From an uncultured virus (IMG/VR IMGVR_UViG_3300026116_000037) (Duplodnaviria > Heunggongvirae > Uroviricota > Caudoviricetes), in the IMG/VR virus record IMGVR_UViG_3300026116_000037: a stretch of DNA of 64,000 nt. One strand, 5' to 3'. Of this stretch, positions 4,936-61,708 are shown one piece after another. Position numbers and translations under genes: made by a program. The stretch's first letter is position 1; each line of letters begins with the position of its first letter. The notes beneath the pieces were generated by a model. It ran no database searches, was not told the DNA's origin, and saw only the letters and a list, made by a program, of their open reading frames with translations.

Positions 4936-4981
4936 GCCTAAGAGCTTAACAAAAACTTATGCGCTTAGGTCTCCTTTTTCG

Positions 4982-8238: not shown

Positions 8239-9408
8239 CTAGCCTTTCTTCGTAGGGGCGGGAGGGGAATCCAGAACGTTCAAAAGCTTATCGGACGCGT
8301 CCGGGGCGAGGTGCGCGTAACGCATCGTCATCGTGATCGAGGAGTGGCCTAGCCACTTCTGCACCCGCTGCATTGGGATCCCGCGCATGGCGCAATGGGA
8401 TCCGAAGGTGTGGCGGAGCGCGTGGGGGTGAACTACGCGGAGGCCGGCTGTCTGGAGCGCACCTTCCACGACGGTCTTCAGGTAGGCGCGCGAGAACGGG
8501 CGGCCGCTCAATGGGCCAACGAAGACGAAATCGGATCCCGCAACTACGCGGCGCGCGCGAAGCTCCTGCAAGGCGTCCGAGAGCTGAAGCGACATCGGAA
8601 CTTCTCGCGGACCCGTTTTGACGTCGACGAGTTTGGGCTCTTCCCCCGAGCGGTATCCGGGAATCAGTTGCCGATCGTATTGGATCGTGTTGCGCTCGAA
8701 GTGGACCCGATCCCACGTCAAACCCAGCAGCTCGCCCGCGCGCGGGCCGGTACGGATCGCCGTCAAAATCAAAGCGTAGGCGTTCCATGCCTCCGGCCCG
8801 GAGTTCGCGAGGAGCCGCTCGGCCTCTTCGAACGTGAGAAAGTCGAACTTCGCTTTCGGCACCTTCACCGACGGAAACTCCGGCATCGAATCCAACTCTC
8901 CCCACGAGACGGCCGAGCGCAGGATCCGACGAAGCGTCTGGAGCACCAGGGCCACGGTCCGAGGGGCGAGCGGCTTCTCCCCGCCGTCGAGGCGTCCGCT
9001 CGCGCTCATGTCCGCCGCCATGCGATCGATCACCTTGCTCGTGATCTGGGAGAGGAGGAAGCCGCGCTCCCGGGCCTCGGGCGTCGTGAAGGCCAGCTCT
9101 CGAAAGTAAGGGATAAGGCGCTTGCGCACGTGGTAGGTCTTGCTTTGGATCGTGGTGGGGCGGTTGTTGCGCGACGCGGGGAACGTGTCGAGCCAGGTCT
9201 CGGCGAACTCCTCGAAGGTCTTGACGACCTTCGGTGGGGCCGGCGCCCGGGATAACGCCTTTTGGCGGGCCCGCTCCATGTCTCGGCGCGCCTCGGTCTT
9301 GGTCGGCGCCGTGCCTGAGATCCGCTTCACCGACCCGTCATCGAGTCGGAATTGCCGGCGCCAGCGGTAAACCCCATACTTCGCGTCGTGCCTGATGTTC
9401 AAGGACAT
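8239..9408 (-). CDS. int: tyrosine recombinase / phage integrase
   Basis: TGPRAGELLGL, HALRHTF, WLGHSSITMTMRY (R-HxxR-H-Y); arm-binding-type N-terminus. Confidence 0.92.
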   Translation of the reverse strand: MSLNIRHDAKYGVYRWRRQFRLDDGSVKRISGTAPTKTEARRDMERARQKALSRAPAPPKVVKTFEEFAETWLDTFPASRNNRPTTIQSKTYHVRKRLIPYFRELAFTTPEARERGFLLSQITSKVIDRMAADMSASGRLDGGEKPLAPRTVALVLQTLRRILRSAVSWGELDSMPEFPSVKVPKAKFDFLTFEEAERLLANSGPEAWNAYALILTAIRTGPRAGELLGLTWDRVHFERNTIQYDRQLIPGYRSGEEPKLVDVKTGPREVPMSLQLSDALQELRARRVVAGSDFVFVGPLSGRPFSRAYLKTVVEGALQTAGLRVVHPHALRHTFGSHCAMRGIPMQRVQKWLGHSSITMTMRYAHLAPDASDKLLNVLDSPPAPTKKG

Positions 9409-9855: not shown

Positions 9856-9867
9856 GTGGGTAAAGGT

Positions 9868-10031
9868 TAGAGAGGGCGCGCGGGGCTACTTCCCCACCCG
9901 TAGAAGATTCCTAACGAGTCGGCGTCCCAACCGACCAGCCGGTCAGCCTCCGCCGCGCCCTCTCTAGTGCCTCGTCTTAGGTCTCGAACCTCTCCCGCTT
10001 GCGCGGGCGCCCCGGACGGCGTTGACGAGAC
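9868..10031 (-). ncRNA. structured intergenic RNA: tRNA-like domain (9969-10031) followed by a long hairpin (9868-9966)
   Basis: 8-bp closing stem GTCTCGTC/GACGAGGC, CGCC/GGCG arm, CCCGC-GCAA-GCGGG arm, AGG-TTCGAGA-CCT T-arm; 9868-9887 pairs with 9945-9966. Confidence 0.45.
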
Positions 10032-10036
10032 GCGGA

Positions 10037-10621
10037 CTAGGCCGCCGATTCGACGCGCGGAGAGACCGACTTCCGCGAGACGCGCCCGAGCAAGAGATCG
10101 CTCTTCGTACCGTCGCCGTTGGTCAGGCCCTCGAACAGGACGACCGGGACATCCTTCTGTCCGTCGGCGTAGGTCGGAGAGATCCGCACGTCGTGCTCGA
10201 CCGTCAGGGACGGGAAGTCGAGGTGGAGCTTGTCCAGGCCCTCGGCGCTGAGGGTGATCTTCTGACCCTTCACGAGCGGGATGACCTTCGAGGACCGGGG
10301 AAACCCGACCTTGAACGCCGTGCCCGACGCGGCCAGGGCCTTGAAGGTGTCGGCGAGGGCGTCCGAGGACGACATCACCAAAGCGATCTGCGAAGCCAGC
10401 GGAGCCGCCGCCGGGTTCTGAGCCGCCCACTTCGCCGTCATGCGGGCGATCTTCGCGGCGCGCTTGCTCACCGAGCGCACGGAATCCTCGAAGTGCCCGG
10501 CGGGGTTGTCCTTCAGCTTGCGGATCGGCGGGACCGTGCGGACGTGCTGCTTGCGGGCCGGCTTCTCCGTCGTCTCGCCTTCGGCCTTCGCGGTGTTCGT
10601 GGCGCTCTTCTTCGTGCCCAT
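10037..10621 (-). CDS. basic hypothetical protein
   Basis: GAAGGAG SD, K-rich N-terminus, high-GC3 codon use. Confidence 0.65.
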   Translation of the reverse strand: MGTKKSATNTAKAEGETTEKPARKQHVRTVPPIRKLKDNPAGHFEDSVRSVSKRAAKIARMTAKWAAQNPAAAPLASQIALVMSSSDALADTFKALAASGTAFKVGFPRSSKVIPLVKGQKITLSAEGLDKLHLDFPSLTVEHDVRISPTYADGQKDVPVVLFEGLTNGDGTKSDLLLGRVSRKSVSPRVESAA

Positions 10622-12978: not shown

Positions 12979-13349
12979 GCGACCGCCGATCTTGGTTCGT
13001 AAAGGGAGAAGAATTCCTCGGGCGACTTCTGCGCCGGAGGCTCGGCCGTCGGAAAACGCGTCAGGTCGACGACCGTGAGCCCCAAGCGTTGGGCGGCCTC
13101 GCGCTCGACGGCCATGCGCGAGGACATTTGGCCGAGCATTACCATTGCGTCGCAACGCGCGAGAAGATCAAGATTACCGCGGGCGGCGCGGATCGCGTGG
13201 TCGATCGTCGGCATGTCCTCGGCGCGCGTCACGCCCAGCACGAACGAGACGTTGGGCGACGTCGACTCGACACACCAGCGAAGCCAGCGGTGCAACCGCG
13301 GGTCGCGCTCGGGGAATTCGTGGAACGAGTGGCTCACATAAACCAGCAT
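12975..13349 (-). CDS. DUF4406 / nucleoside-deoxyribosyltransferase-like small protein
   Basis: VYVSH, LARCDAMVML...SSRMAVEREAA..LGL pattern. Confidence 0.55.
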   Translation of the reverse strand: MLVYVSHSFHEFPERDPRLHRWLRWCVESTSPNVSFVLGVTRAEDMPTIDHAIRAARGNLDLLARCDAMVMLGQMSSRMAVEREAAQRLGLTVVDLTRFPTAEPPAQKSPEEFFSLYEPRSAVA

Positions 13350-19068: not shown

Positions 19069-19656
19069 TTAGGAGACCTTGGAAGAGGACTTTTTCGCGG
19101 CCTTGACCGGCTTCAACTCGACGAGCTTGAATCGCTTCTCGGCGTTCGCTGGGCCCTCGACCTGGTGGATCCCGTCGATCATCTTGAGGAGCTTCTGGCG
19201 CCAGAACTCAGCGATGGCCAACTCCTCGCGGGCCTTCAAGAGCTTGGCGGCAGTCTCTTCCGCCGGCCCGAGGAGGTTCTCCAGGCTATGAACACGCCCG
19301 CGAGCCTCGGACAGCTGACTGCAATAATTTTCGGCACGACAAGTCTCCTCGTCCAGCCGCTTCGTCAAGACCTCCACATTGCTCTGTGCGTGGAAGAGCT
19401 TCGAAGAGTCCTCGCGCGCGGCCACGCGGAACAAATTGAACTCGTCCGTGGTCGCCTTCGCGCGCTCGACGTGATCCTCTACGTGGCTCATCAGCTCCGC
19501 GCAGCGTGCCGTCAGCCGGCGGCGAGAGTGCTCCAAGAAGAGCGACAGGAGAATCAATCCCAGAAGCAGCGAGACAGGATAGACGAGCGGGATCTCGAAC
19601 ATGATGCTTGCCCTTTCGTAGCGGGTTTCGTGCGGGTTGTGTGCCGTACCCTGCAA
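19069..19656 (-). CDS. membrane-anchored coiled-coil protein
   Basis: TM segment followed by heptad-rich region. Confidence 0.55.
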   Translation of the reverse strand: MQGTAHNPHETRYERASIMFEIPLVYPVSLLLGLILLSLFLEHSRRRLTARCAELMSHVEDHVERAKATTDEFNLFRVAAREDSSKLFHAQSNVEVLTKRLDEETCRAENYCSQLSEARGRVHSLENLLGPAEETAAKLLKAREELAIAEFWRQKLLKMIDGIHQVEGPANAEKRFKLVELKPVKAAKKSSSKVS

Positions 19657-20422
19657 CCGAAAGAACAGCTTAGCACTAAGAGCTTAAGGCTAGGCGGATA
19701 AAATTTTACTTTTTGTCGCCCGCGGTCCACCGTCGATCGGCCTGGATCAGTGCCTCGCGCAAGCGCGCCAATTCCGCGGTGGTGGGCTCGGGCTTCGTGG
19801 CCTCCGGCGGCCAGAAGACCTCAGTTTTCACGGTCGAGACCTCGTCCCACTCGTCGGCCAGCTCGCGGCGCTCATCGGCGTCGGTGTAGGTCTCCAGGCT
19901 CAGATAGTGGCCATCAACTTCAGCGCGTCTCATCAGCCGATCCTCCATACGGTGTAAAGCGTTGCGCGCAGGAGCCCGACACAGTAGCCGGCCGCCCCAC
20001 ACGCGAACATGACCACCCACAACGGGATCTCGATCTGCTCGTCCCACGCGGGCCAGCGCCAGGGCTTCACTTCCGAGCCTTCCGGCGGCGCTTCTCCGCC
20101 CGCAGCTGCGACAATCGGGCGCGGCGCTGGTCGTGGTTGAGCAAGGCCAATTGTGTGGCCAGCGCCGGATCGCTGATTCGGCCGAAGATCTTCAGCCGCT
20201 TCATCGCGTGCGGGTTGCCGGCTCGGGCGTCCTCGACCAGCGCGCGGAGTCCGCTCTCCATGTTCTGCCGCGCCAGCTCGATGAGACGCTCGGCCTCAGA
20301 CGGCCTCCCGTAGTACGGAAACGCCGGTAACCCTACGCCGCCCGCGCCGGTCACGTCTCCGGTCGATCGTCGGACTATGATCCTCGCCGCTTCGCGGATG
20401 TCGTCTGTTTTCACCGGACCGG

Positions 20423-30925: not shown

Positions 30926-31138
30926 CTATGCGGACTCGCGCCACGTCCTCAGCGTCGTCCGAGCCTCCGCGACCGCCTCCTCGACCGTGTGGCCGGCGCC
31001 GAGGATCTCGATCGTTTGGCCGCGCTCGTCGTTCAGGTAGATCGCGACCTCGAACTCCGTCTGACCGCCCCACATGTCGGCGAGGTCGGCCGCGGTGTCG
31101 ATCCTGATTCCGGGCTTGGCGACGTTCCGAGTGCTCAT
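30926..31138 (-). CDS. small hypothetical protein
   Basis: ATG 7 nt after conserved promoter. Confidence 0.7.
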   Translation of the reverse strand: MSTRNVAKPGIRIDTAADLADMWGGQTEFEVAIYLNDERGQTIEILGAGHTVEEAVAEARTTLRTWRESA

Positions 31139-31145
31139 GATCTAT

Positions 31146-31180
31146 CCATCGGCTCAGGGCGATAAAAACTTAAGGCCTTA
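31146..31180 (-). promoter_or_regulatory. sigma28-like promoter copy (leaderless)
   Basis: TAAGGCCTTAAG-N15-GCCGATGG-ATAGATC-ATG. Confidence 0.8.
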
Positions 31181-32026
31181 GCTTTCCTGTCTAATCGAAC
31201 CGCTTCGACTTGAGCGCCTTCCGTCCCTCGTCGGTCAGCTCCCACTTTCCACCACGACTCACGACCAAGCGCATGGAGGCCGCGGTGGCAAGAAGAAGGC
31301 CTTGAGCAGGACGCCGCGAGGGGCCTTCCTCGTCGAGCCGACGGAGAAGCGCGCTCATGACGTTGACGAGCTTCATCTCGCCGCCTCCATCACCTCGCCC
31401 GCGATGCCCTCGCGCATAGCCCTCTCCAACGTGGCGCGTTGCATTTCGAGCGCGAAGCGGTTCGAGGCGGCTCGGCGCTCCGGCGGCGGCGGGCCGGCGG
31501 TACCGTCAAACGCGTCACACGCGAGGTAATACTCGGCCCAAAGCTCGACGGCGCGCACGTAATTCGGGTCCGGCGGAGGGAACTCCCCGTGCCAATCGCG
31601 GCGCGAGTCGGGAGGGCTCACGGCTCACGCTCGTAGGTGTGAGGTGCCCCGCGAACCATCCGCCGATCGCCGAACGGCCGACGCCCGGTCTTGCGCACCG
31701 TGATCTCGATCTCGTCGCCGTCCCGAACCTCAGCGGCCGCGATCGCCTCCTGAATGACGTGCGGCTGCACCTGTCCTAAATCGGCGTCGGTCTCACTGTT
31801 ATGCAGCACGTTGCGGTATGGTCGGTGGTTCCCAGACCAGTATTCGGTGTAGGTCACTACGACTTTACCGACGGGCGTCGGCTTCGTGGTGGCGTCCTCC
31901 CACACCCCGAGGTTCTGATCAGCGGCGGCGTGGCTATCGTAGTGCCCCGCCTCGCGGGCGCACCTTCTTCCGTGAAACTCGGACACGCTCTCGCACTGCA
32001 TTTGAGTCCTCTTGTTGGGTGTTCGA

Positions 32027-32158
32027 TTACTTCGCCGCCGGCTCCGGCCGCGGCGCGACCTTGCGCACCAGGGCGAACCACGCGGCGGCGAGTAGGCCGA
32101 AGTCCTCGACGTCGAAGGGGAGGACCGCGGCGGGGTGGGGAGCGTTCGTCGTGTTCAT
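32027..32158 (-). CDS. 43-aa microprotein (not in ORF track)
   Basis: MNTTNAPHPAAVLPFDVEDFGLLAAAWFALVRKVAPRPEPAAK; leaderless promoter. Confidence 0.7.
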   Translation of the reverse strand: MNTTNAPHPAAVLPFDVEDFGLLAAAWFALVRKVAPRPEPAAK

Positions 32159-32165
32159 GATCTAT

Positions 32166-32200
32166 CCATCGGCTCGTGGCGAAAAAAACTTAAGGCTTTA
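32166..32200 (-). promoter_or_regulatory. sigma28-like promoter copy (leaderless)
   Basis: TAAAGCCTTAAG-N15-GCCGATGG-ATAGATC-ATG. Confidence 0.8.
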
Positions 32201-32461
32201 GAATCACCAGTTCATGGCGCAATGATTCGCTGCGCGGCTTGTCCGTAAACAGCACCTCGCCCGGCTCGGTCACGCCCGCGATCAGCATCGTGACTCCGTA
32301 CTCGTTATCGGAGGTCTGGACGCAAAACGCGAGCAAGCCCCCTCCTTCGAGGTGAATCTCGACATTTTGGAGCGGCGTTCCTCCGTTGGATTTGCCGCCC
32401 GAGTTCAGCTCGACGCGCGCGATCTTCCGGCCGCGCAAGAGCTTCGAGACCTCGCGGCTTG

Positions 32462-32887
32462 TCACGACGCGGCCTTGTGCCCTTCGCAGTCGTGGCACGC
32501 CTCCGCGTGCGCCTGGCGAACGAAGTCGGCCCGGTTGGCGGCGTGGTCGAGTGAATAGCCGAAGCCGTGATCGGTGATGAAGCTCTCGATCTGATCCTCG
32601 CGGAGGTAATGCCGCGTCGAGACCCGCGCCGTGACGTAGCAGCTCGCCCACCGGCCGCCGGTCAGCCCATCGGCTCGCTCCGCCAGCGCGTATGAAGTAG
32701 GAGTCTTGAACCACGTGCCGTCCGGGAGCGGCTCCCAGAAGCCGTCATAGTCGAACGCTACGAGCTGGAGGGGCTCTTGTTGCGGGTAGACGTCCCACCG
32801 CGTGGAGCGACGCGCCCAATAGAGCCCGTCTTGCGGGCGGTCGGCGGTCGGCTTAGGGGCTTCGGTGCGGGTATTGGTCGTGTTCAT
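32462..32887 (-). CDS. hypothetical protein
   Basis: ATG 7 nt after conserved promoter. Confidence 0.7.
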   Translation of the reverse strand: MNTTNTRTEAPKPTADRPQDGLYWARRSTRWDVYPQQEPLQLVAFDYDGFWEPLPDGTWFKTPTSYALAERADGLTGGRWASCYVTARVSTRHYLREDQIESFITDHGFGYSLDHAANRADFVRQAHAEACHDCEGHKAAS

Positions 32888-32894
32888 GATCTAT

Positions 32895-32931
32895 CCATCG
32901 GCTCGCGGTAAGAAAAACTTAAGGCCTTAAG
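32895..32931 (-). promoter_or_regulatory. sigma28-like promoter copy (leaderless)
   Basis: CTTAAGGCCTTAAG-N15-GCCGATGG-ATAGATC-ATG. Confidence 0.8.
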
Positions 32932-34676: not shown

Positions 34677-34713
34677 ACATCGGCACGCCCTTCGAAAACC
34701 TTAAGGCCTTAAG
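34677..34713 (-). promoter_or_regulatory. sigma28-like promoter copy
   Basis: CTTAAGGCCTTAAG-N15-GCCGATGT. Confidence 0.75.
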
Positions 34714-35192
34714 AACTATTTTTTAACTACTTAGGTAGCGACTTCGGTACCGGCTCGGCGAGAGCCACCGCGCGGCCGAACCGGGTGATCGTGAACTCGG
34801 GCGCGCCGTCGGGGGCGAGGTAGCGGTGGAGAAGTCCACGACGGTGTAGGGCGATCAAGACGGTGGGGTTGGTAGGGCCCGTACCCGAGGCCCGCACCGG
34901 CCGCCCGTCAAGGGCCGCGCTCAGCGCCTCGATCATGGCGTCGGTGAGCGGGCCGGCGTCGTTCACGTCACGGGCTCCAATATGGCGACGCGCGACTCCA
35001 GCAGATGTCGGCCGGAGTCAAGCTCTCGCTGTATCGCCGCCAGCGACGACCGCAGCCGCTTGTTTTCGTCGTCCAGCGCGACGATGGTTCCGTGCATCCT
35101 GTTCGCGGTCTTAAGCCCCTTGCCAGCGAACTTGTCCAGCCAACGCCGAGACCGACCGACCTCGGCCGCGATCTCCTCCTTGCTCGGCGGAA

Positions 35193-37315: not shown

Positions 37316-37432
37316 TGCACCGCCCGTGCCTACGCTGGGCCGTTCGGCGGGCCCCGCCTAGCCTCGGGTAATATCTCCCGACGTTGCTTCCGAGTCTACG
37401 GTTTTTGTTGCTTCTGTTGCCTCCGAGGCTAC
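37316..37432 (-). promoter_or_regulatory. sigma54 promoter with upstream enhancer
   Basis: AGGCACGGGCGGTGCA (37331-37316); GTAG-N9-CAAC-N5-CAAC-N7-GTAG-N9-CAAC at 37432-37383. Confidence 0.75.
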
Positions 37433-43134: not shown

Positions 43135-43674
43135 ACCCCCTGTTTTCTCGCCCCGCCGTGGCACACACGTTGTAAATACACAGGGGCATAGACCTATCTA
43201 GGCGTAACCATTGGGCCGCAAACGATTAACTAAATCGTTTGCCCTCCCCGCCCGCCCCGAACCGCGTGTCATCTACACCCACAAGGTAGGACAGGGTAGG
43301 GGGTTCGGATACGACTGCCCTACCTCTAGCCTCGGGGGCGCGCCCTACCTGCATGAAATTTTGTGCGGGATCCCCGGCAAACGGTACTTTCTGCACCGCG
43401 TCAATTATTACCGGCCCGCCAGCTAAACTCCCTAAGGTCCGAGCCCGCCCGCTATTCCCATCCGTCCCTAAGACTTAAACCGAGGCCGAGCCCGATCATG
43501 GTCGCCGCGAGGCCGAGCCCAAAGATCGGATCGGCGGCCGGCCCCGCGCGCCCTCCTCCGGAACCGGGTCGAACCCTAAGCGTTTCCGGATCTTGCCTTA
43601 GCTTTCCGCGGTTTTAGGAACCGGTCCCGCTCGCGCACGCGAACCCTCTTGAAAATTTTTTCCAGAAAAATTCC

Positions 43675-43709
43675 TAAGCCCTTAAGGCTCTAGACGTCCG
43701 AGCCGATGA
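43675..43709 (+). promoter_or_regulatory. sigma28-like promoter copy (leaderless)
   Basis: TAAGCCCTTAAG-N15-GCCGATGA-ATAGATC-ATG. Confidence 0.8.
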
Positions 43710-43716
43710 ATAGATC

Positions 43717-44076
43717 ATGAGCACGACGCCGACCGTCCGCCCCGCCACCGGCCCCGCCACCGGCCCCGCCACCGGCCCCGCCACCGGCCCCGCCACCTAC
43801 GTCCCCGAGATCGCCTTGAACCAAATCAAGGCGCTGGATTATTGGGCCTTCGCCCGCTGGGGCGTCAAGGACGTCCTCTCTTTCAACGGGGACACCCTGC
43901 AACTGAACTGCGCCCGCGGGCGCCGGATCCTCGTGACGCTCGACCGCGGCACCGACACCTACCGGATCTCCGTCGGCCGCGTCCGCAACTTCGAGTTCCG
44001 CGAGCTGGCCTCGGATACGGGTGCCCACGCCGAGGATCTCGTCATCGCGATCGACACCTTGATCGAGCGGGCGTAA
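43717..44076 (+). CDS. hypothetical protein with 12-bp (PATG) tandem repeat
   Basis: Leaderless start; CCCCGCCACCGG repeats at ~43740-43797. Confidence 0.7.
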   Translation: MSTTPTVRPATGPATGPATGPATGPATYVPEIALNQIKALDYWAFARWGVKDVLSFNGDTLQLNCARGRRILVTLDRGTDTYRISVGRVRNFEFRELASDTGAHAEDLVIAIDTLIERA

Positions 44077-44128
44077 GTCGCCCGCCCGCTCCGCCACCAC
44101 GAAACGCCCACACGAAAGGAACCCCGCT

Positions 44129-44524
44129 ATGTCCACCCGCCCGACCCGAGCCAAGAACTTCGCCCGCACCCAAGCCCTCGTCAAGGTCTTCGCCCCGAAG
44201 CAGCTCCACGACGCGATCGACGCCACGCGCACCATGGGCGAGCTGGAATTCGTGGCCAAGATCGGCGCTGGCTTCGCGGCCTCCCTCGCGGCCGCGCCCG
44301 CTCCGGAGCGCTTCACGCTCTTTCTCCTGGACGCCGGCCCTAACAAGATCGGCACCATCAAAGCGATCCGCGAGATCACGAATCTCGGGCTCAAGGAGGC
44401 CAAGGACCTGGCGGACGCGGCGGGCGGCCATCCGGTCAAGATCCTGGAAGGGGTCGACCACCGCAGGGCCAAGGCCGGATATGACGTCCTGAGCGGCACG
44501 GGAGCCAAGGCCGAGATCGGCTAG
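44129..44524 (+). CDS. rplL: ribosomal protein bL12 (L7/L12) C-terminal-domain homologue
   Basis: FTLFLLDAGPNKIGTIKAIREITNLGLKEAKDLAD...ILEGV...GAKAEI. Confidence 0.85.
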   Translation: MSTRPTRAKNFARTQALVKVFAPKQLHDAIDATRTMGELEFVAKIGAGFAASLAAAPAPERFTLFLLDAGPNKIGTIKAIREITNLGLKEAKDLADAAGGHPVKILEGVDHRRAKAGYDVLSGTGAKAEIG

Positions 44525-44728
44525 CCCCCGCCCGTCGCTTCGGGACGTGACGCGCTTAGCTCTAAAAACGTCCCTTACGCAATAAAAATTCTTTACTCTC
44601 AAAAGGCAATGACTTAGTTTTGTCGATGCCGACGGACACTGTCCCACACCAGATCCGAGCACGTACCTTTTTCGTAACCGTCCGCCCACCCGTCCCGCCC
44701 AAGCCGCCGCCGACAAGGAGATCACCCA

Positions 44729-45208
44729 ATGAGCCCCAACCGCACCGCCACCGCCAGGACCCATACCGCGCCCCAACCTCACGCCCCGGCCGCCCACACC
44801 TCGCGCCCTTCGCGCCCCGCGAACGCCGACGTCGCCCGCGCGCCGCACGTCCGCGCCGCCGCCAACGCGATCCCCGGCTACGCGCCGCCCTCGCGGAAGC
44901 AGATCACGGACGCCTTGCAGGAGGCCGAGGACCGGAAGAGCCGGCACCAGAAGGTGTTTCAGGTCATCGGGAGCCCCGAGTGGTACACGCCGGCCGGCAC
45001 CCTCCGGGCGAAGGACACGATCAAGATCGGCCTCGACGCCTTCGAGGTCGTCATGAAAACGAACAAGGGCCCAGGCATGATGGAGCTGAAAATCGCGACG
45101 CCCATGGGTGACCGGCTCGTCCCCATGCAGCGAGACGCCCTCGTGCCGATCGTCCGCCTCGCGGACCCGGCCGCCCGCAAGCGCATGCGCTCCGGCGGGA
45201 ATTCGTAA
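44729..45208 (+). CDS. hypothetical protein
   Basis: AAGGAG SD; followed by terminator. Confidence 0.65.
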   Translation: MSPNRTATARTHTAPQPHAPAAHTSRPSRPANADVARAPHVRAAANAIPGYAPPSRKQITDALQEAEDRKSRHQKVFQVIGSPEWYTPAGTLRAKDTIKIGLDAFEVVMKTNKGPGMMELKIATPMGDRLVPMQRDALVPIVRLADPAARKRMRSGGNS

Positions 45209-45273
45209 GCTTTCCACCCACACCCTTAGCCCTATCGGGCCGCGCCGCCCCCGCGCCGTTCGATTCGAAAGCC

Positions 45274-45300
45274 CGGCCGCCCATCTGGAGCGGCCGTTTT
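45274..45300 (+). terminator. intrinsic terminator
   Basis: CGGCCGC/GCGGCCG stem followed by TTTT. Confidence 0.7.
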
Positions 45301-45354
45301 CATTTAGGCCCCCGAGCCGCAGGCCCGAGAAAAAAATTCTTTACGTTCTAGTCT

Positions 45355-45389
45355 TAAGCGCTTAATTTTTAGATCGGTCGAGCCGATGT
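45355..45389 (+). promoter_or_regulatory. sigma28-like promoter copy (leaderless)
   Basis: TAAGCGCTTAAT-N15-GCCGATGT-CTAGATC-ATG. Confidence 0.75.
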
Positions 45390-45396
45390 CTAGATC

Positions 45397-45681
45397 ATGA
45401 TGACAACGACGACGGAAACGACGACAATCAGCGCCGCTATCAGCGACATCATTAGCAACCATCTCGGCTCCGTGCCCGAAATCGAAGTCGACGACGCCGA
45501 GACCACCAACACCTACGATCTCGACGAGCAAACCCACGTGTATAGCGATGACGACTTCGCGGCGGCCGAGCTGGAAGAGGTCCTCCGCCTCACGCGCGCC
45601 GCGCTCTCGGCCTCCGACGCGAACGAATCCGAGTGGTTCACGCGCGAGGCGCTCGACATTCTTTCCCGGATCGATTCCTAA
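45397..45681 (+). CDS. small acidic protein
   Basis: D/E-rich 94 aa; leaderless start. Confidence 0.7.
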   Translation: MMTTTTETTTISAAISDIISNHLGSVPEIEVDDAETTNTYDLDEQTHVYSDDDFAAAELEEVLRLTRAALSASDANESEWFTREALDILSRIDS

Positions 45682-45713
45682 GGCCTTAAGTTTTCTCGCC
45701 CGCGAGCCGATAG
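45679..45713 (+). promoter_or_regulatory. sigma28-like promoter copy (leaderless)
   Basis: TAAGGCCTTAAG-N15-GCCGATAG-N7-ATG. Confidence 0.8.
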
Positions 45714-45720
45714 GATCTGC

Positions 45721-46077
45721 ATGAGCACTACGATTTACACCGGAAAAGAAAAGCGCTACAACGGCAAGTGCAAATGCGGCTCGCGTTTCTCGACGCTCGC
45801 GACGCGAGTGCAGACCGCGGCGCACGTTCTCGGCCCGGTGGCCGACGGCGCTTCCGGCTTCGTCGAGTTCCACGCCGAGGGGCGCAGCTTCTCCGAGTCG
45901 CGGCTCTCGAACGACTCCCTTTGGTTTCGCTGCGCGTGCGGCCGGTGGAACCGCGCCGAGCCGGTGCGCGGGACCATCGTCTCCTCGAAGAAGTGCAACG
46001 CCCTTTGCCTCGCGTCCTCCGGCCACTCGTGCGAGTGCTCGTGCGGTGGTAAAAACCACGGCGCGCAGCACGGGTAG
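45721..46077 (+). CDS. Cys-rich small protein
   Basis: KCNALCLASSGHSCECSCGGKNHG. Confidence 0.7.
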   Translation: MSTTIYTGKEKRYNGKCKCGSRFSTLATRVQTAAHVLGPVADGASGFVEFHAEGRSFSESRLSNDSLWFRCACGRWNRAEPVRGTIVSSKKCNALCLASSGHSCECSCGGKNHGAQHG

Positions 46078-46744
46078 CCCGCTCTCCTCAACCACCGAAA
46101 GAAAGGAACGCCGCCCATGTCCTCCACGCCCAGCGCCTCCCTGCCCAACACCTCCCGGTTCGCCACCTGTCCCACCTGCGCCGCTTCCGTCGCGGTCGTC
46201 GAAGGTCGCCTCATCACGCACGACGCGCCGAAGCCGTGCCGCGCGGCTTGCTCCGGCTCGCGCTCCGCCGAACAGCTCGGCCGCGCCGAGGGCAAGATCG
46301 TCGCCGCCTTCCTCGGCGCGCTCGCCGAGGAGCACGACCTGGATTGGGTGATCTCCTATGAGGACGCGCCCGGCGAGCCCAAGGCCTTCCGCGTCGTGCG
46401 CGACGGGCTGAAGTTGCTGGAGCCGCCGCACGTGATCGGAGAGACCGAGACGGAGGCGCGCGATTGCATCTCGCTCGCGGCCGTGGGAGCCGATGCGATC
46501 CGGCGATACGACGGCGGCCGGCGATGATCAAAGGCACGACCTTCAAGCGCACGCGCTACCGGCTCGGCACGATCGTGTGCGGCGCGGCCTATTACTTCAC
46601 CGACCTCCCCGAGTTCCGAACGGAGATCGCGGCGCGCGCCTACCTCCGCGAGCACCGGACCGCGCTGGGCCGCCCGGTGTATGTCTGGCGCACGCGCGAG
46701 TGCTGGGCCCGCGGCGTGAACTACGGCACCGACGTCGAGGGTCC

Positions 46745-46850
46745 GTTGCCTGAGGAACAACAGAAACAACAGCAGGCGTTGCCGGCCGCTCAACAACCGC
46801 CCGCCCCGGACGCGGATTCGTAAGGGCTTAGAGTCGGCACGGCGCCTGCA
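46745..46850 (+). promoter_or_regulatory. sigma54 promoter with upstream enhancer
   Basis: Enhancer 46745-46794; CGGCACGGCGCCTGCA 46835-46850. Confidence 0.75.
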
Positions 46851-46864
46851 ATACTCCGGATCAT

Positions 46865-47021
46865 CTTCTCAAAACCCCGCCCGGAAGGGCGCCCTAGCAG
46901 GGACCTAGGGAGGAATGGGGGCACACCCGAGAAGGCCTCGAACACTTTCAAAACCCCGCCCGGAAGGGCGCCCTAGCAGGGACCTAGGGAGGAATGGGGC
47001 ACACCCGAAAGTGTTCGAGGC
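46865..47021 (+). ncRNA. tandem structured RNA with GGA loops (CsrA/RsmA-sponge-like)
   Basis: Two ~60-nt near-identical units, each closed by a different stem; starts at the expected sigma54 +1. Confidence 0.6.
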
Positions 47022-47058
47022 GCCCGCTTCCGCAACGCTCAAACCGGAACCTCTTCAC

Positions 47059-47634
47059 ATGTACAAACATTGGATCGCTTTTCGAAAGACGGCACAAGGC
47101 ACCGTGATCCACTTGTGGCCCGACGGCGCGATCACGTGGGCGCTCGGACTCTACGTCAAGGGCTCGCCACACGCGCGAACGGACGCGCAGATCGCCGAAG
47201 CGCGCACGGCTGGCTGGCTCGTTATGGGCGAGGTCGAGCTTTACGACGATGACGAGGTCCCGGCGCTGATCAAGGCGGCTCGATGGGCGGCGGCCCGCGG
47301 ACTGGATCCCGGCGCGATGCGGGCCCATCTTCACCGGCCTACCGTGTTGCGTCCCGTGTGGGAAGTGGTCGAGGCGGATCGCGACGGCAATCCGCGCGTG
47401 CGTGTTTGGAAGCTCCCGCGCCTTCGATGGCCGGGGCTCAGCGTGTGGTCGGACGGCGCCACTTATTCAATCTGGCGAGAGATCTCCGGCGGCCGCGGAA
47501 CCTATGGCCCGACCGGGATCGAGTTCTCGAACCTCGCGGAGCTTTCGGCGCACCTGTTGAGCGACTGTCAACACATGCAACACAAGGCGTTGCCGGCCGC
47601 TCAACAACCGCCCGCCCCGGACGCGGATTCCTAA
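47059..47634 (+). CDS. hypothetical protein
   Basis: MYKHWIAF...; C-terminus runs into the next enhancer. Confidence 0.55.
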   Translation: MYKHWIAFRKTAQGTVIHLWPDGAITWALGLYVKGSPHARTDAQIAEARTAGWLVMGEVELYDDDEVPALIKAARWAAARGLDPGAMRAHLHRPTVLRPVWEVVEADRDGNPRVRVWKLPRLRWPGLSVWSDGATYSIWREISGGRGTYGPTGIEFSNLAELSAHLLSDCQHMQHKALPAAQQPPAPDADS

Positions 47635-47661
47635 CCTTTTCGAGGTGGCACGCCCGGTGCA
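47556..47661 (+). promoter_or_regulatory. sigma54 promoter with upstream enhancer
   Basis: Enhancer 47556-47605; TGGCACGCCCGGTGCA 47646-47661; ATG 47678. Confidence 0.8.
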
Positions 47662-47899
47662 TTCAAGAGAGTCCATCATGGTCAAACTCACCCGCCCCGT
47701 CGATTTCGAGGCCGCGATTCTCGAACAGCAGGAATACGAAAGCGGAGAGTGTGGTGGTGTATACCCCGGGATCGAGAAATTTGATCCGTACGGCCCGCAA
47801 TGCGAGGAGTGCCGCTATTCCGGCGGTCAGCACTCGATATCTTGCCAAAAGGTGAGCGCCCGCAAGCGCGCCCGCCAAGGCGACCTCAAAACCTAACCC

Positions 47900-48005
47900 G
47901 TTGCGCGGGCGACAACAGAAACAACAGCTTTCGTTGCCTCGTGAGCAACATCCGCCCGCCCCGGTCGCGGATTCCTAGCCTCTTAGGGCCGGCACACCCC
48001 GTGCA
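47900..48005 (+). promoter_or_regulatory. sigma54 promoter with upstream enhancer
   Basis: Enhancer 47900-47949; CGGCACACCCCGTGCA 47990-48005; ATG 48022. Confidence 0.8.
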
Positions 48006-48021
48006 TTCAAGAGAGTCCATC

Positions 48022-48243
48022 ATGGAAAACACGACGACCGCCGAGACCGCCACCGTCCACGATCGCGTGATCCTCAAACCGGGCCGCGAGGTGCTCGACC
48101 CGCACAACCGCCGGATCGAGGTCGTGTCGGTCACGCCCGACCCGAGCGGCGACAAGGCCCGAGACGTGGTGACGTGCCGGCTCCGCGGGCCGTACGGGGC
48201 GACCGTGACCTACACGCGGTCTATGCTCCGGCCGGTAGAGTAA
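48022..48243 (+). CDS. small beta-rich protein, paralogue of 50911-51081
   Basis: Shared KPGR..DPH.R...VV.VTPDPSGDKARD.V..RL.G.YGA...Y.RS.LRP. Confidence 0.7.
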   Translation: MENTTTAETATVHDRVILKPGREVLDPHNRRIEVVSVTPDPSGDKARDVVTCRLRGPYGATVTYTRSMLRPVE

Positions 48244-48255
48244 AAATTATTTTTC

Positions 48256-48290
48256 TAAGGCCTTAAGGTTTTGGCGCCCGGTGCCGATGG
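48256..48290 (+). promoter_or_regulatory. sigma28-like promoter copy (leaderless; ATG 48298)
   Basis: TAAGGCCTTAAG-N15-GCCGATGG-GATAGGT-ATG. Confidence 0.8.
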
Positions 48291-48573
48291 GATAGGTATG
48301 AACACGACCAGCACCCCGGACACCAGCCGCTTCCAGACCCGTGGCGTTCTCGCGGGCGCCTACAAGGCCGGCTCCGCCGCCGAGGCCCGCGCGATGCTGA
48401 CCCACCTCGTGGACCTCACGATCAATCACGGTTTCACGGCGCTTTGCCGCCGCGTCAAGGCCGGCAACATGGCGGACGAGTATTCGGGCACGTCGGCCGA
48501 GCTGGCCGCCCGCCCGACGTGCCCGATCTGCGCCGCGAAGTGGGACCGCCTCCAGAAGTAAAAAATAATTTCT

Positions 48574-48608
48574 TAAGGCCTTAAGGTTTACCACGCCCGA
48601 GCCGATGG
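48574..48608 (+). promoter_or_regulatory. sigma28-like promoter copy (45-aa ORF 48620-48757 follows)
   Basis: TAAGGCCTTAAG-N15-GCCGATGG. Confidence 0.8.
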
Positions 48609-49091
48609 AATAGTTAATCATGGCGCTCTCCTCCCTCTCCGGTTTCGGCTTCGGCGGCGCGGTCCTCCCGATCGTCAACCCCGCCGCCCTCGTCAAGGTC
48701 TCGGCCCCGGTGAAAGAAGTAAGGCCGCCCCCGCCCCACGAAAGGGATCTCACATGAGCCGCGAATCCAAGCCCTCCGCGCCCTCCGCGCCCTCCGCGCC
48801 CTCCTACGTCTACAAGGTGCATGACGGCAAGCTCTACCGCGTGAAGGTGAAGAAGATCACGGCCACGGGAACGGTCTTTCTCGAAACGAGGCCGCTTTGT
48901 TTCGGCTGTGCGGCGATGGTCCATCCGCAACGCGCCCACTTCACCGCGGAGTCGGCGCTCGCGGCCGCTCGCCTCCACGCCGAGCGGGCCGCCGCCGATG
49001 CCGCGTTCGCGCTGGAGCAAGTCTCGAACCTCACGCCGGCCGACGCCATCGATCCGAAATCCTGACGGCTGCCTCCGACACAACAGAGTCC

Positions 49092-49188
49092 CAGCCGAAG
49101 CAACACCTTCCGTAGACTCCGAGGCAGCAACAGCCGGCGCTAAGGGCCCGCACGTTTCGAGGGTCCTAAGAACGGCACAGAGCGTGCA
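49092..49188 (+). promoter_or_regulatory. sigma54 promoter with degenerate enhancer
   Basis: CAGC-N5-CAAC-N7-GTAG-N9-CAGC; CGGCACAGAGCGTGCA 49173-49188; ATG 49202. Confidence 0.65.
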
Positions 49189-49926
49189 TTTAGATCCGGA
49201 CATGATGAGGACGACGCCGATGCTGAAAGTCAAAGACGCACAATTCTGGATCGCCGGGCTCGCCGGCCTACCCGAGGCACACGCCCTCCGCCAGATCTCG
49301 CACGAGGTCGAGGCGCAGCGCCTGGCCCTGGCGGCCGCGCGCAGTCTACCAGCCCGCGAGCTGGCCGAGTGGCGCAAGAGCGTTGAGATTCTGGAGCGCA
49401 CCAGCTCCCGCTTTCGCAACGCCATGGAGCGCCGGCTCCGCGCGCGCGAGGGCGCGGCCGCGATGTCGCTCGACGTGGCCGAGGACGGCCCGATCCGCGG
49501 GAACAGCTGATCGCGCGTGGTATCCTTAGGGACTCACATGAGCAAGCTAACCGACGGCCTCAAGACCTGGATCGCTCAGCGCCTCGCCGGCTCCTCCGCG
49601 CGCTTAGCGGTCGCCGAGATCAACGCCGTTCTGAGTCGGCAGCGCGCCGTGCTGGAGCAATGCAAGGCGGATCAGCAGTGGCCCGACGGTATCAACCCGG
49701 ACGACCTGGAGAAGTCGATCAACTTGCTCGAAGTTGGCCTCCGGAGGGCGCAGGAAGCGGCCAGCGCAGAGCTTGAAGCGAGCATGACCAACGCCGCCGC
49801 CGAGGCACGAGCCCTCGCCATGGCCGAGCTGCGTGCGTTCGAGAGCCTCGCGGATGCTCCTTCTCCCGCCGTCCCGGCCACGCCCGCGGCGGCCGACGGG
49901 GATACGTCGGCCGAGCCCGCGACGCT

Positions 49927-50033
49927 GTTGACCAAGAAACAACAGAGGCAACAGAGTTAGTTGTCCGGCGCGCAACCGGCCCGCGCGCCACGCCCCGGAT
50001 CGGCGGGGCTTTCGAAGTGGCACGGGCGCTGCA
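49927..50033 (+). promoter_or_regulatory. sigma54 promoter with upstream enhancer
   Basis: Enhancer 49927-49976; TGGCACGGGCGCTGCA 50018-50033; ATG 50047. Confidence 0.8.
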
Positions 50034-50230: not shown

Positions 50231-50260
50231 CCTAAAGATTTCTTACGCTCTAGCCGATGG
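50231..50260 (+). promoter_or_regulatory. sigma28-like promoter copy (leaderless; ATG 50269)
   Basis: CCTAAAG-N15-GCCGATGG-N8-ATG. Confidence 0.75.
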
Positions 50261-51092
50261 GATCAATCATGAACACGACGACGCCGAAGACGAAGAGCCC
50301 CCGGGCGATCAAGATGGCCGAGCGCCGCGCGGAAGCGGCGGCCCACGCGGAACGGATGGCGAAGATCTACGCCGAGAACGCGGCGATCGTCACTACCGGG
50401 AAGTGCCCGGAGTGCGGCACCAAGCTCTACAGGAACTCCTCGCTCGCCGGTTGGTGGCAATGCGGCCACTACGGCGCGCCTGGCTTCCAGGCTGAGGCGG
50501 GCCCGCACTGTTCCTTCCAGCTCTTCACGAAGTAGCCCACGGCCGCCCACACCAAAGGAGCCCGGACACATGAAGCTCATTCAAGCCGAGACGGCCTATC
50601 GGAAATTCATCGGCCGCCGAGCGTTGTGGACGTCTACCTTCGGAGCGATCTCCGCGGACGGCAAAACGAAATTCGACGCCGAACGTGGGCTCGAAGCCGC
50701 GCTCCACCGGCTCGTGACAGAGGACGGAACGCCCGTCGTCAAGCACGACGCCCGCGGCGGCACGTGGGTCGCGCAGCGCGAGAACCACGGCTCGTGGTCC
50801 TACTACCACATCGACCAGACCACGGGTGAGCATAGGTGCGTGTGCGTGGTCGGGGAGCGAGACACTTGCCTGGCCTTCATGGAGTCCCACATGCGACAAT
50901 GGTGCGAGCCGTGATCAAGCCCGGCCGCAACGCCATCGACCCGCACGGCCGTAACGTGTATGTGGTCGACGTGACTCCGGACCCGAGCGGAGACAAGGCC
51001 CGGGACCTCGTGAAGGTCCGGCTCGCAGGGTCGTACGGCGCGCACCTACAGTATCCGCGCTCGACCCTTCGGCCGGCCTAAAAATCTTTTTC

Positions 51093-51127
51093 TAAGGCCT
51101 TAAGGTTTCCGGCGGCCGAGCCGATGG
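51093..51127 (+). promoter_or_regulatory. sigma28-like promoter copy (leaderless)
   Basis: TAAGGCCTTAAG-N15-GCCGATGG-GATAGGT-ATG. Confidence 0.8.
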
Positions 51128-51134
51128 GATAGGT

Positions 51135-51287
51135 ATGAATGCGACGACGACTCAGAACGAGGTAGCCCGGATCGAGCGCGCCAAGTTCCTGGCCTTCTTC
51201 GCCATCGACCCGGCCCTGTCGCCGGCCGAGCGGATCGCCAAGACCCGCGAGGCGCTGGCCGAGCTGGACGGCATCGGGGAGTGGTAG
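51135..51287 (+). CDS. 50-aa microprotein (not in ORF track)
   Basis: MNATTTQNEVARIERAKFLAFFAIDPALSPAERIAKTREALAELDGIGEW. Confidence 0.7.
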   Translation: MNATTTQNEVARIERAKFLAFFAIDPALSPAERIAKTREALAELDGIGEW

Positions 51288-51373: not shown

Positions 51374-51841
51374 ATGAAGCTTCGATCTTTTCTTCCGGTC
51401 CTTGCCCTCGCCGCCCTGTCGTCGTGCTCGATCTTCAAGCCGGTCGTGGACAACGTCAACGACCCGTCCACCACGGCGGGCGCCATCGTGGCGGACTGCG
51501 CCAAGCCCGAGATCGCCGACGCCGTGGCCAACGTCTTGGCCAACATCAATCAGATCATCGTCGACCCGAGCAAGCTGGAGGTGGTGAAGGAGCAGGAGAT
51601 CGCCTCCCTCAAGGCCTCCGGCCAGGAGGTGCTCGCGTGTGCCCTGCGCGCCGGAATTGCCGACATCACCGCCATGATCCAGAACGCGGCCACGCATCAC
51701 GCCGCGATCGATTCGCGCGTCGTCAACTCACGCTCGACGCTCTCGCACGTCGTGAGCGCGCAGGGCTTCGCGTACGCCGACGGCTGGCGCCCCTCCGCTC
51801 CTAGCGGCGCGGGCGGTGCTGGCGGCGCGTCCGGGCGCTAA
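51374..51841 (+). CDS. lipoprotein
   Basis: Signal peptide with lipobox LSSC; AAGGAG SD. Confidence 0.7.
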   Translation: MKLRSFLPVLALAALSSCSIFKPVVDNVNDPSTTAGAIVADCAKPEIADAVANVLANINQIIVDPSKLEVVKEQEIASLKASGQEVLACALRAGIADITAMIQNAATHHAAIDSRVVNSRSTLSHVVSAQGFAYADGWRPSAPSGAGGAGGASGR

Positions 51842-51908: not shown

Positions 51909-51996
51909 AAAGGCAGAAGAGGCCACGCCCGCCGCTATCACCGCCAAAATCGACTTCGGCGGCGGGCGTGGCGCTGGTCTTTTAGAAAGGGAAACG

Positions 51997-52746
51997 ATGT
52001 CCATCGCCGCGTTCGTCAACCGCTCGTCCAAGCTCACCGACTCACAAGCCGCGTTGATCGTCGAGGCGTTGCAGATCCAGCAATTCGATCTGTTCGACAC
52101 GTGGCGCGGCGACCTTTCCGACATCGGCGGCCCGGCCGATATCATGACGCCGCTCCTGTGCGCCGACGAGAACCGCCTCCCGGAAGGTTGCTATCCCGTC
52201 GTGTTCGTCGACAATCCCGACGTCGCGGGCGCGCTCGGATATCACAGCGTTGACAACGGTGGCAAATACTACGCCCGGATCTTCACCGATCTTTTGCTCG
52301 CCCGCGGGCCGTGGAATGAAACCGTTTCGGCGTGCGCCTCGCACGAATACGTCGAAATGTGCCTGAACGCCCCGTGCCTGATCGGCGTGATAGGGCCGAA
52401 GCGCGTCGAGGGCTCGCGCTATCAGCGCGAAGGATCGGATCCGGTCGAGAGCGATTCGTATTGGGTGAATGCCGACCGAGACGGATTTCCGCACGCCGTC
52501 GCGGTCAGCAACTTCGTTTTGCCGGACTACTTTCGAGCGAGCACGCCGAACGGTGCGCGTGTCGACTTCATGGGCACGTGCCCCGGTCCATTCCAGCTCG
52601 CCCCCGGCGGCTACATGCTCGTGGGCCAGGACGGCCTCTCTATCCCCACTCCTATCTACGCCGCCAAGCCGCCGGCCCCCGAGCGCGTCTTTTACAAGAC
52701 CCTCGGCCGTCGCTTCTACGGCGGCCGCGGCAAAGTTAAGCCCTAA
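51997..52746 (+). CDS. putative metallopeptidase-like protein (Phi-1/EXORDIUM-like)
   Basis: GALGYH, SHEYVEM, E.SDPVE, VSNFVLP. Confidence 0.5.
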   Translation: MSIAAFVNRSSKLTDSQAALIVEALQIQQFDLFDTWRGDLSDIGGPADIMTPLLCADENRLPEGCYPVVFVDNPDVAGALGYHSVDNGGKYYARIFTDLLLARGPWNETVSACASHEYVEMCLNAPCLIGVIGPKRVEGSRYQREGSDPVESDSYWVNADRDGFPHAVAVSNFVLPDYFRASTPNGARVDFMGTCPGPFQLAPGGYMLVGQDGLSIPTPIYAAKPPAPERVFYKTLGRRFYGGRGKVKP

Positions 52747-54398: not shown

Positions 54399-54440
54399 CC
54401 GCCGCGTAGCGCCTAAGAATTTGTTAAGCTCTTAGGGCGG

Positions 54441-60919: not shown

Positions 60920-61708
60920 GTGAGCGTCGACTATAACAAAGGCGATGTTTCGTTCGTGCGGATGATGATTCCGCACCACGAAACCGCCGTGTCGGCGGCC
61001 GCAGCGGAATTCAAAAGCGCTTCCAGCCCCGAGATCAAGGAGTTGGCGCGAAACATTCTAGCTGGGCAACAGGTCGAGATCGCGCAGATGAAGACTTGGC
61101 TCAACCTACGCGGACTTGCGGAAGCGGATCCAGACGACGCCACTGAAGAGGAGACTACAATGCGGAAGGCCGACGGGGTGCTCGACGCCGACACCGCCCG
61201 GATCATCCGGGCGGCGGCCGGCGTCGGGCCCGACGAGCAGATCGAGATCTTCGAGATCCGCGAAGAGATCACCGAAGGCGCGGCCATCGTCGGCAAAGGC
61301 GCCGAGCCCAGCGTCACCCGCGTGATCAAAGGCGTTCTTCCGGCGGAGGAGCGCTTCGTTTTGGGGATCGTGCTGGAGCCGACGCTCGAAATGGGTCAGC
61401 CGGACTCGCAAAACGACGTCTATTCAGCGGCGGAAATTGAAAAGGCCGCCCACAACTGGATGCAGCGCTACAAACAACTCGGCGTCCAGCACAAAGAAAA
61501 AGCCGACAACAGGATCGAAATTCTCGAATCGTACATCCAGCGCGGAGATACGGTCGTCAACGGACAGATCGTCAAATCCGGGACGTGGTGCATGGCCGTT
61601 CGGGTGGTCGATGATCAGCTTTGGGCGGACGTGAAGGCCGGCAATTTCACCGGGTTCTCAATCGGCGGAATGGCCAATCGACAGCCCGTCGAATCAACGA
61701 CCGCCTAA
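60920..61708 (+). CDS. DUF305 domain fused to XkdF-like prohead serine protease
   Basis: DVSFVRMMIPHHE...QQVEIAQM..WL; D.QND..SA.EIEKAAH, ESY, GTW, TGFSIGG. Confidence 0.8.
   Translation: MSVDYNKGDVSFVRMMIPHHETAVSAAAAEFKSASSPEIKELARNILAGQQVEIAQMKTWLNLRGLAEADPDDATEEETTMRKADGVLDADTARIIRAAAGVGPDEQIEIFEIREEITEGAAIVGKGAEPSVTRVIKGVLPAEERFVLGIVLEPTLEMGQPDSQNDVYSAAEIEKAAHNWMQRYKQLGVQHKEKADNRIEILESYIQRGDTVVNGQIVKSGTWCMAVRVVDDQLWADVKAGNFTGFSIGGMANRQPVESTTA

Follow-up and report, generated by a model that had tools for sequence, protein, structure and literature searches.

A tandem structured element behind a sigma54-type promoter of an uncultivated soil phage: a possible modular 5′ leader RNA

In a stretch of 64,000 nucleotides (nt) of DNA from an uncultivated soil phage (IMG/VR record IMGVR_UViG_3300026116_000037, Caudoviricetes), called the window below, a tandem pair of structured units lies on the + strand at positions 46865–47021. 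The pair is located directly downstream of a sigma54-type promoter and is followed by an open reading frame (ORF) of 191 amino acids (aa), ORF47059 (47059–47634, +). We prefer, though with reserve, to explain the element as a modular 5′ leader RNA that is specific to this phage lineage, belongs to the ORF47059 cassette and most likely acts in cis. We infer the transcription, strand, start site and function of the element from the sequence. The element was found only in near-identical metagenomic relatives of the phage and is a member of no catalogued RNA family. A first-pass annotation of the same DNA had read it as a candidate phage-encoded sponge for the host CsrA/RsmA protein; this reading is considered below together with the other alternatives.

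The two units are built on the same core. The cores, at 46869–46930 and 46948–47008, consist of two copies of an exact 52-nt repeat and of an exact 13-nt repeat. Positions 46869–46920 and 46948–46999 are 100% identical over 52 nt, positions 46918–46930 and 46996–47008 are identical over 13 nt, and the cores differ only by one G, as unit 1 has GGGGG where unit 2 has GGGG. The units repeat with a period of 79 nt, of which 65 nt are identical, and the intervening ~14 nt have diverged yet still pair. A 50-nt pattern of the core matched twice in the window, against 0.00 matches expected from 100 shuffles. Unit 1 (46865–46934, +) is closed by a helix of 6–7 base pairs (bp) between the strands CTTCTC (46865–46870) and GAGAAG (46929–46934). 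In unit 2 (46935–47021, +), the same core (46950–47006) is closed by a perfect 15-bp helix. Its strands, 46935–46949 and 47007–47021, form a 15-nt inverted repeat with 100% complementarity, one of just three perfect inverted repeats of at least 13 nt within 120 nt in the 64-kb window. The description of two near-identical units with these two closing stems, given in the first-pass annotation, was correct. Two Logan assemblies that are independent of each other bridge the junction between unit 1 and unit 2 (X1 record 3 and X2 record 7), and two metagenome contigs, L036 and L037, carry both units. The four sequencing runs inspected were DNA contigs broken at the repeat, and no joints were seen in them.

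According to the predicted fold, the closing helix of each unit encloses two abutting hairpins, one of 5 bp with a GGAA tetraloop and one of 6 bp with the 7-nt loop CAGGGAC. These are followed by the junction AGGAAT and by a 3-bp GGG/CCC hairpin, which is weak. Pairing of CCCC with GGGG is an alternative within 2 kcal/mol of this fold. In unit 1, on the + strand, the fold and the repeats place the tetraloop hairpin at 46878–46891, the 7-nt-loop hairpin at 46892–46910, the junction at 46911–46916 and a G-run with CACACCC at 46917–46928. The whole region folds on the + strand with −80.2 kcal/mol (z −4.13), and 0 of 200 shuffled sequences folded as well. Unit 2 alone gave z −5.86 (0/200 shuffles as good), and unit 1 alone gave z −1.53 (13/200). 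Within a context of 271 nt the units fold independently of each other. When the units were aligned, all 42 cells were paired and the 14 inner pairs were invariant, and the closing helices differed at 4 of 7 pairs, one of them changed on one side and three on both. The earlier observation that a shared core is combined with different closing stems is therefore upheld in the form of compensatory differences on both sides of 3/7 pairs. The shuffle control on the closing-pair changes is weak with two sequences only (55/500). Identical cores with flanks that have diverged and still pair do not fit a simple recent duplication of 79 nt, which would leave identical flanks.

The motif GGCACGGCGCCTGCA at 46836–46850 (+) reads as a sigma54-type −24/−12 promoter, GGCACG-N5-TGCA. 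By the usual −24/−12 spacing, its transcription start is predicted at ~46860–46863, that is, 2–5 nt 5′ of the first stem. The first-pass annotation had put the start of the RNA at the +1 of this promoter, and the predicted position agrees with it, as far as sequence evidence goes. A stricter promoter pattern gave four matches in the window against 0.19 expected. The form GGCAC-N6-TGCA occurs at six sites: 37316–37330 on the − strand and, on the + strand, 46836–46850 (the promoter of the element), 47647–47661, 47991–48005, 49174–49188 and 50019–50033. CAACAG-type (CAAC) repeats are found ~70–100 nt upstream of all six. At five of the six promoters an ATG follows 12–16 nt past the TGCA, which would place the AUG at about +3 to +7 of near-leaderless messages. 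Only the promoter at 46836 has the element downstream, and it reads ...GATCATC where the others read ...CATCATG.

The promoter of the element is preceded by a module of ~98 nt that is present in three copies (46743–46840, 47554–47651 and 47898–47995; three matches against 0.03 expected). The first copy (+), in which CAACAG-AAA-CAACAG and an imperfect dyad are found, covers the final codons of ORF 46464–46823; the next one overlaps the last codons of ORF47059. Because the repeated module overlaps both 3′ ends, these two otherwise unrelated ORFs share their terminal 15 residues (46779–46823 and 47590–47634). We read the module as the putative enhancer, i.e., activator-binding, region of the promoter. 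Among the 76 window ORFs scanned, none has an activator ATPase, CsrA or reverse transcriptase domain. Sigma54 itself is present in 3/3 metagenome-assembled genomes (MAGs) that carry related phage genes. Apart from one site in L002, the combination of this promoter with CAAC repeats is absent from related phage loci. It seems unusual for a phage to run a block of genes from enhancer-dependent promoters, and a limited literature search found no description of such a block under six sigma54-type promoters with near-leaderless starts.

Neither a sigma70-type promoter nor a terminator-like site was found within 46865–47058; the region 46300–47700 has three terminator-like sites against 1.1 expected, all of them outside this interval. 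Every gene from 39.8 kb onward is on the + strand. A transcript from the promoter at 46836–46850 should therefore run through the element into ORF47059. The element would make up its first ~160 nt and would be the 5′ leader of the ORF47059 message. Each core of ~57 nt, held in its own helix, would then fold independently and present the same loops and junction, so that every unit would display a GGAA tetraloop, the loop CAGGGAC and the Shine-Dalgarno-like GGGAGGAAT. A stable fold that begins a few nucleotides into the transcript would shield the message. Two identical platforms could in addition bind a protein or the 30S subunit and in this way influence the stability, processing or translation of ORF47059; a protein-binding leader for this ORF was one of the alternatives named in the first-pass annotation. 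Unlike its neighbors, ORF47059 has a long leader and no Shine-Dalgarno motif: a motif of the GAAAGGA/AAGGAG type precedes many genes of the window and is absent before this one. The spacer of 37 nt (47022–47058, +) that runs from unit 2 to the start codon is weakly structured and has neither a Shine-Dalgarno motif nor a U-tract.

Stabilizers at the 5′ terminus and phage leaders are known from the ompA-type 5′ stem-loop, Shine-Dalgarno-like stabilizers, HK022 put, lambda nut and the P1 c4 RNA. The element would resemble them by a stable structure near the 5′ end, by a Shine-Dalgarno-like untranslated leader and by its position behind a phage promoter. It differs from them in that there is no homology, and tandem identical modules with covarying closing helices are not known to be a feature of those RNAs. 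A c4-like cis-antisense arrangement was rejected, as the only complement between the tetraloop region and the spacer is 6 nt long and in the 271-nt fold neither unit pairs with the start region. Each unit also contains an AUG (46915–46917 and 46994–46996) immediately 3′ of GGAGGA. In the window, the AUG of unit 1 is in frame with ORF47059, and in L036, L037 and X3 an extra G puts the AUG of unit 2 in frame instead. A longer ORF from 46915 was rejected because this frame is not kept in the relatives and because the homologues start at the position of 47059. Moreover, the distance from GGAGGA to the AUG in the units is too short for a normal start.

The sequence comparisons indicate that ORF47059 is a member of a real protein family. 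Among 238 candidates we found 79 relatives at E ≤ 0.01, none of them with a Pfam domain, and the N-termini of several homologues coincide with the ATG of ORF47059. The protein is predicted to fold with a pLDDT (predicted local distance difference test) score of 90.5. No match was found among the PHROG, Pfam and PADLOC models, Foldseek returned nothing at E ≤ 0.001 for the predicted fold, the best VIA match had a Z of 5.4, which is under the noise level stated for this tool, and the best E in a profile search of the PDB was 0.71. Pattern scans with the single protein found no relatives of ORF47059. Scans based on the alignment found two viral loci (L038 and L039) and 0 genome loci.

The search for the RNA itself gave few relatives. 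At the gathering score, Rfam 15 had 0 matches in the whole window. The only Rfam match at E ≤ 10 in 46750–47120 was SorY on the minus strand (E 0.78, 15.9 bits against a gathering score of 111), which we regard as noise. The Infernal/Rfam check that had been proposed in the first-pass annotation thus matched neither the Csr/Rsm RNAs nor any other family. ARAGORN found 0 tRNA genes in the window, and Rfam at E ≤ 10 gave no tRNA match; a tRNA-like element was called by ARAGORN only at the 70% threshold and on both strands, and was rejected as noise. Exact and degenerate patterns, in which the loops and junction were fixed and the stems were free, had 0 matches in 2.9 million viral contigs. In the genome contigs of 185,579 species genomes there were 12 pattern matches, none with both stems complementary (the best, L034, had 3/4 and 5/6 pairs), and we took them as chance. 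The scan of metagenome contigs found three, L035, L036 and L037. In the phage DNA collection nothing matched 46700–47700, and blastn-short of the units against 21 related loci gave nothing beyond 16 nt.

A covariance model built from the two units (R1) found nothing convincing in 23 related loci (best E 0.42), and its best E in 15 whole related viral records was 0.18. Within the window it recovered the two units and one weak match (17 bits, E 0.008) at 9969–10031 on the − strand. The weak match is part of the intergenic region 9856–10040 (−) near the integrase gene, where the sense strand can form a cloverleaf closed by 8 bp (9969–10031) that adjoins a domain closed by a perfect 13-bp inverted repeat (9868–9880 with 9954–9966). 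This region folds with z −3.24 (1/200) on the − strand against −1.44 on the other strand. Its layout is like that of the element, a unit with a short helix and then a unit with a long one; it has no sequence repeat and no Rfam match.

The two contigs with both units, L036 and L037, are 92–95% identical to the window over 6 kb, and their divergence is mosaic. The block 46752–47500, which covers the promoter module, the element and most of ORF47059, has only two differences, and one of them is an additional G in unit 2. Outside the block the DNA has diverged to either side, and the boundaries fall at the repeated upstream modules. Thus, the promoter, the RNA and the ORF were inherited as one cassette bounded by these modules, and since the whole block is nearly identical, the identity of the element tells nothing about selection. 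Over 43868–49998, the contigs diverge from the window block by block, with boundaries at ~46750 and ~47550, at the promoter-upstream modules. This suggests that the repeated modules may serve as recombination joints that shuffle gene cassettes. The third contig, L035 (1,477 nt), has only one unit, whose left flank is that of unit 1 and whose right flank is that of unit 2. Its closing helix is lost and its fold has z +0.18. We did not count it as a real variant because an assembly collapse of the repeat would give the same form.

Several observations weigh against a leader RNA with the function proposed here. The − strand folds as well as the + strand or better (−85 kcal/mol, z −3.93), so the strand is assigned from context only. 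The 58-nt core alone gave z −0.27, with 76/200 shuffles as good, and a scan of the window showed that closed multi-branch folds are frequent in its GC-rich DNA (64% G+C). It follows that the structural evidence lies in the closing helices and not in the inner hairpins. If L035 is real rather than an assembly collapse, even the closing helices are dispensable. The relatives provide no covariation, as the carriers are identical over the whole block, coding sequence included. The element is also not tied to the ORF47059 gene family, of which two other loci could be read. Of L038 (68% identity) and L039, one shows upstream a plain hairpin with a Shine-Dalgarno motif, and in the other the gene overlaps the one before it. 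Since both are without the element, it is not a conserved leader of the family. In the sequencing-run search the stretch was listed in no RNA run, and the search gave no expression evidence. Finally, the perfect 15-bp helix is excessively stable for a switch. The same helix counted against a tandem-aptamer riboswitch, which the first-pass annotation had offered as an alternative: no Rfam class matched, no relatives were found outside the phage lineage and the closing helix of unit 2, with its 15 perfect pairs, does not look switchable.

The main rival of a cis-acting leader, although we consider it clearly less probable, is a trans-acting modular small RNA (sRNA). The transcript would end at the long helix of unit 2 or be cut within it, and the two released modules would pair through their loops with host or phage targets or sequester, as decoys, an RNA-binding protein that is not CsrA. 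Such an RNA would explain why the element occupies the position where the other cassettes have their ATG, and it agrees with the NrsZ-like type of promoter, with two identical helix-insulated modules whose loops and junctions are fully identical, and with a possible one-unit variant (L035). It is opposed by the lack of a terminator 3′ of the element, of a complement of at least 8 nt to the 7-nt loop region elsewhere in the window, of any complementary stretch longer than 12 nt outside the element by blastn-short, and of a match to NrsZ or another Rfam family. The NrsZ report describes an RpoN promoter and similar stem-loop modules with an identical loop motif, which are processed to single modules and number from one to six across species (PMC4253122). 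With this RpoN/NtrC-dependent RNA of Pseudomonas, as it is described there, the element would share a sigma54-type promoter with a start ~12 nt downstream, repeated modules with an identical loop motif and a module number that varies between genomes (PMC4253122). The modules of the element differ in being helix-enclosed multi-hairpin domains of ~70–87 nt, whereas those of NrsZ are single stem-loops of ~40 nt between U-triplets. The element is also phage-borne, runs into an ORF and has no sequence or Rfam match to NrsZ. By this comparison, NrsZ is the closest documented analogue in design, and the element is not a member of its family. A further idea, which we regard as rather improbable, is that the element is a sigma54-driven decoy in which two helix-insulated modules mimic a translation-initiation region and titrate a host factor when the sigma54 regulon fires. 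Each module would show a GGA-bearing loop beside a Shine-Dalgarno-like stretch and then an AUG, and the titrated factor could be the 30S subunit, a protein like CsrA, or a different regulator or nuclease that binds RNA. The narrower reading of the first-pass annotation, a phage-encoded sponge that titrates the host CsrA/RsmA through GGA motifs, found no support in our analysis, and we weakly disfavor it as a quite doubtful explanation. GGA is indeed enriched, with eight occurrences in 157 nt against a window mean of 2.8 ± 1.7, a number reached by 0.66% of windows. The 7-nt loop CAGGGAC carries A-N-G-G-A, the core motif of CsrA sites, and the single-stranded AGGAAT lies 12 nt downstream. Of the four GGA of each unit, the GGAA tetraloop and the 7-nt loop contain one each, and the remaining two are in the Shine-Dalgarno-like GGGAGGAAT, partly inside a stem. 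With one of them in a GNRA-type tetraloop and one half inside a stem, ~2 sites per unit and ~4 in total look usable. The likeness to CsrB, CsrC, RsmX, RsmY and RsmZ consists in the GGA enrichment and in the placement of one GGA per unit in a hairpin loop and of another in a junction that is single-stranded. The differences are the small number of sites, the absence of a terminator-like site at or after 47021 and of a U-run past the last helix, the enclosing helices of 6–15 bp, which a sponge does not need, and the absence of a Csr/Rsm match in Rfam. The 76 window ORFs that were scanned contain no CsrA domain. CsrA (PF02599) was present in 0/3 MAGs carrying relatives of the phrog_1745 gene, against 3/3 for sigma54, with controls positive in 3/14 genomes; this is weak evidence because the similarity of those phages is limited to 55–71% identity in one protein, the link between these MAGs and the host of the present phage is loose, and the MAGs may be incomplete.

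Three other explanations were considered. It is highly improbable, in our view, that the element is the RNA of a type III toxin–antitoxin-like system or of an autoregulatory RNA–protein pair, with repeats bound and perhaps cut by the ORF47059 product. In the survey of type III loci, the repeats are 31–62 nt long and present in 1.9–5.6 copies, the components are 1–50 bp apart and the toxins have 45–288 aa (PMC3401426). As with the ToxI, CptI and TenpI antitoxins described there, tandem repeats lie between a promoter and a toxin-sized ORF with a palindrome before the ORF (PMC3401426). The order is promoter, tandem direct repeats, palindrome and the 191-aa ORF 38 nt downstream, and the RNA and the ORF were inherited as one block. 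The period of 79 nt, however, exceeds the 31–62 nt given in that survey (PMC3401426), and the palindrome surrounds repeat 2 instead of lying after it. The array is not reported by Tandem Repeats Finder under its default settings. ORF47059 is without a Pfam, PHROG or PADLOC match and falls outside ToxN, CptN and TenpN by profile search, and its relatives at the two other family loci have no repeats. Equally hard to credit is a cis-acting signal for processive antitermination, in which the polymerase would be modified by two hairpins of the nascent RNA. The models for this comparison are HK022 put and lambda nut. The element lies directly behind a promoter, has two hairpins abutting or one base apart, and has a GNRA-type tetraloop hairpin after an A-rich spacer. 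There are, however, no downstream terminator-like sites to overcome, every cassette further downstream is served by a promoter of its own, the boxA-like stretch is not the same in the two units and is base-paired, and no N-like protein was recognized in the window. Finally, the element may act at the level of DNA or have no function: it could be a protein-binding or recombination site, a cruciform, or a duplicated hairpin-rich spacer homogenized by gene conversion. We hold this to be about as improbable as the sigma54-driven decoy. It would account for the equally good folding of both strands, for the unexceptional fold of the core and, through the mosaic block, for the conservation in the relatives. 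The CCCTAG...CTAGGG stem resembles the CTTAGG/CCTAAG palindromes of the second class of intergenic modules of this phage. Nevertheless, two different inverted repeats, 15 bp around a 57-bp insert in the case of unit 2, fit a single-strand hairpin better than a duplex site; the element begins exactly at the predicted transcript start, and it is far from int (8239–9408), the replication genes and the terminase.

Returning to the leader reading, structured leaders and modular sRNAs behind sigma54 promoters are known as a kind; the phage setting and the helix-insulated identical modules are new. If the element is transcribed as predicted, it is a phage-borne structured RNA of no catalogued family that is driven by an enhancer-dependent promoter. 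Should its partner be a host regulator, this would add a new case of host takeover through RNA. If it is merely a protective leader, the biology is ordinary and the regulatory setting is unusual. In addition, identical modules with different compensating helices make a clean natural test object for helix swaps and loop mutations.

The genes of the window are arranged in two groups. The − strand carries the integrase (8239–9408), ribonucleotide reductase, helicase, nuclease, primase and polymerase genes. On the + strand from 39.8 kb there are small ORFs of no assigned function, the phrog_1745 protein, the large terminase, the portal and the major head protein. As for clues to the host, TerL is at most ~30% identical to cultured phages, the relatives of the integrase are at most 32% identical, and the scores in an atlas search with the L7/L12-like protein did not exceed 0.85. 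The latter protein is encoded by ORF 44129–44524 (+), which contains the C-terminal domain of ribosomal protein L7/L12 (PF00542, E 4.9e-15). ORF 60920–61708 (+), upstream of the major head protein gene, joins DUF305 to an XkdF-type phage serine protease domain.

The window also contains a second family of intergenic modules, which consist of an A/T-rich run, the palindrome TAAGGCCTTA (or its CTTAGG/CCTAAG variants) and GAGCCGATGGATAGATC directly before the ATG. They are located at about 31135–31181, 32148–32203, 32883–32929, 34678–34725, 43655–43720, 45340–45397, 45660–45721, 48239–48298, 48557–48619, 50235–50270 and 51080–51135, and related forms are found at 4935–4965, 19656–19700 and 54410–54440. 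Judging by their sequence, these modules probably represent a second class of promoters or operators, used on both strands. A perfect 14-bp inverted repeat with a 23-nt loop lies at 51922–51972, between ORF 51374–51841 and ORF 51997–52746. Within the nuclease-like ORF 10741–13155, a 15-nt unit is repeated 6.9 times with 100% identity at 11572–11674.

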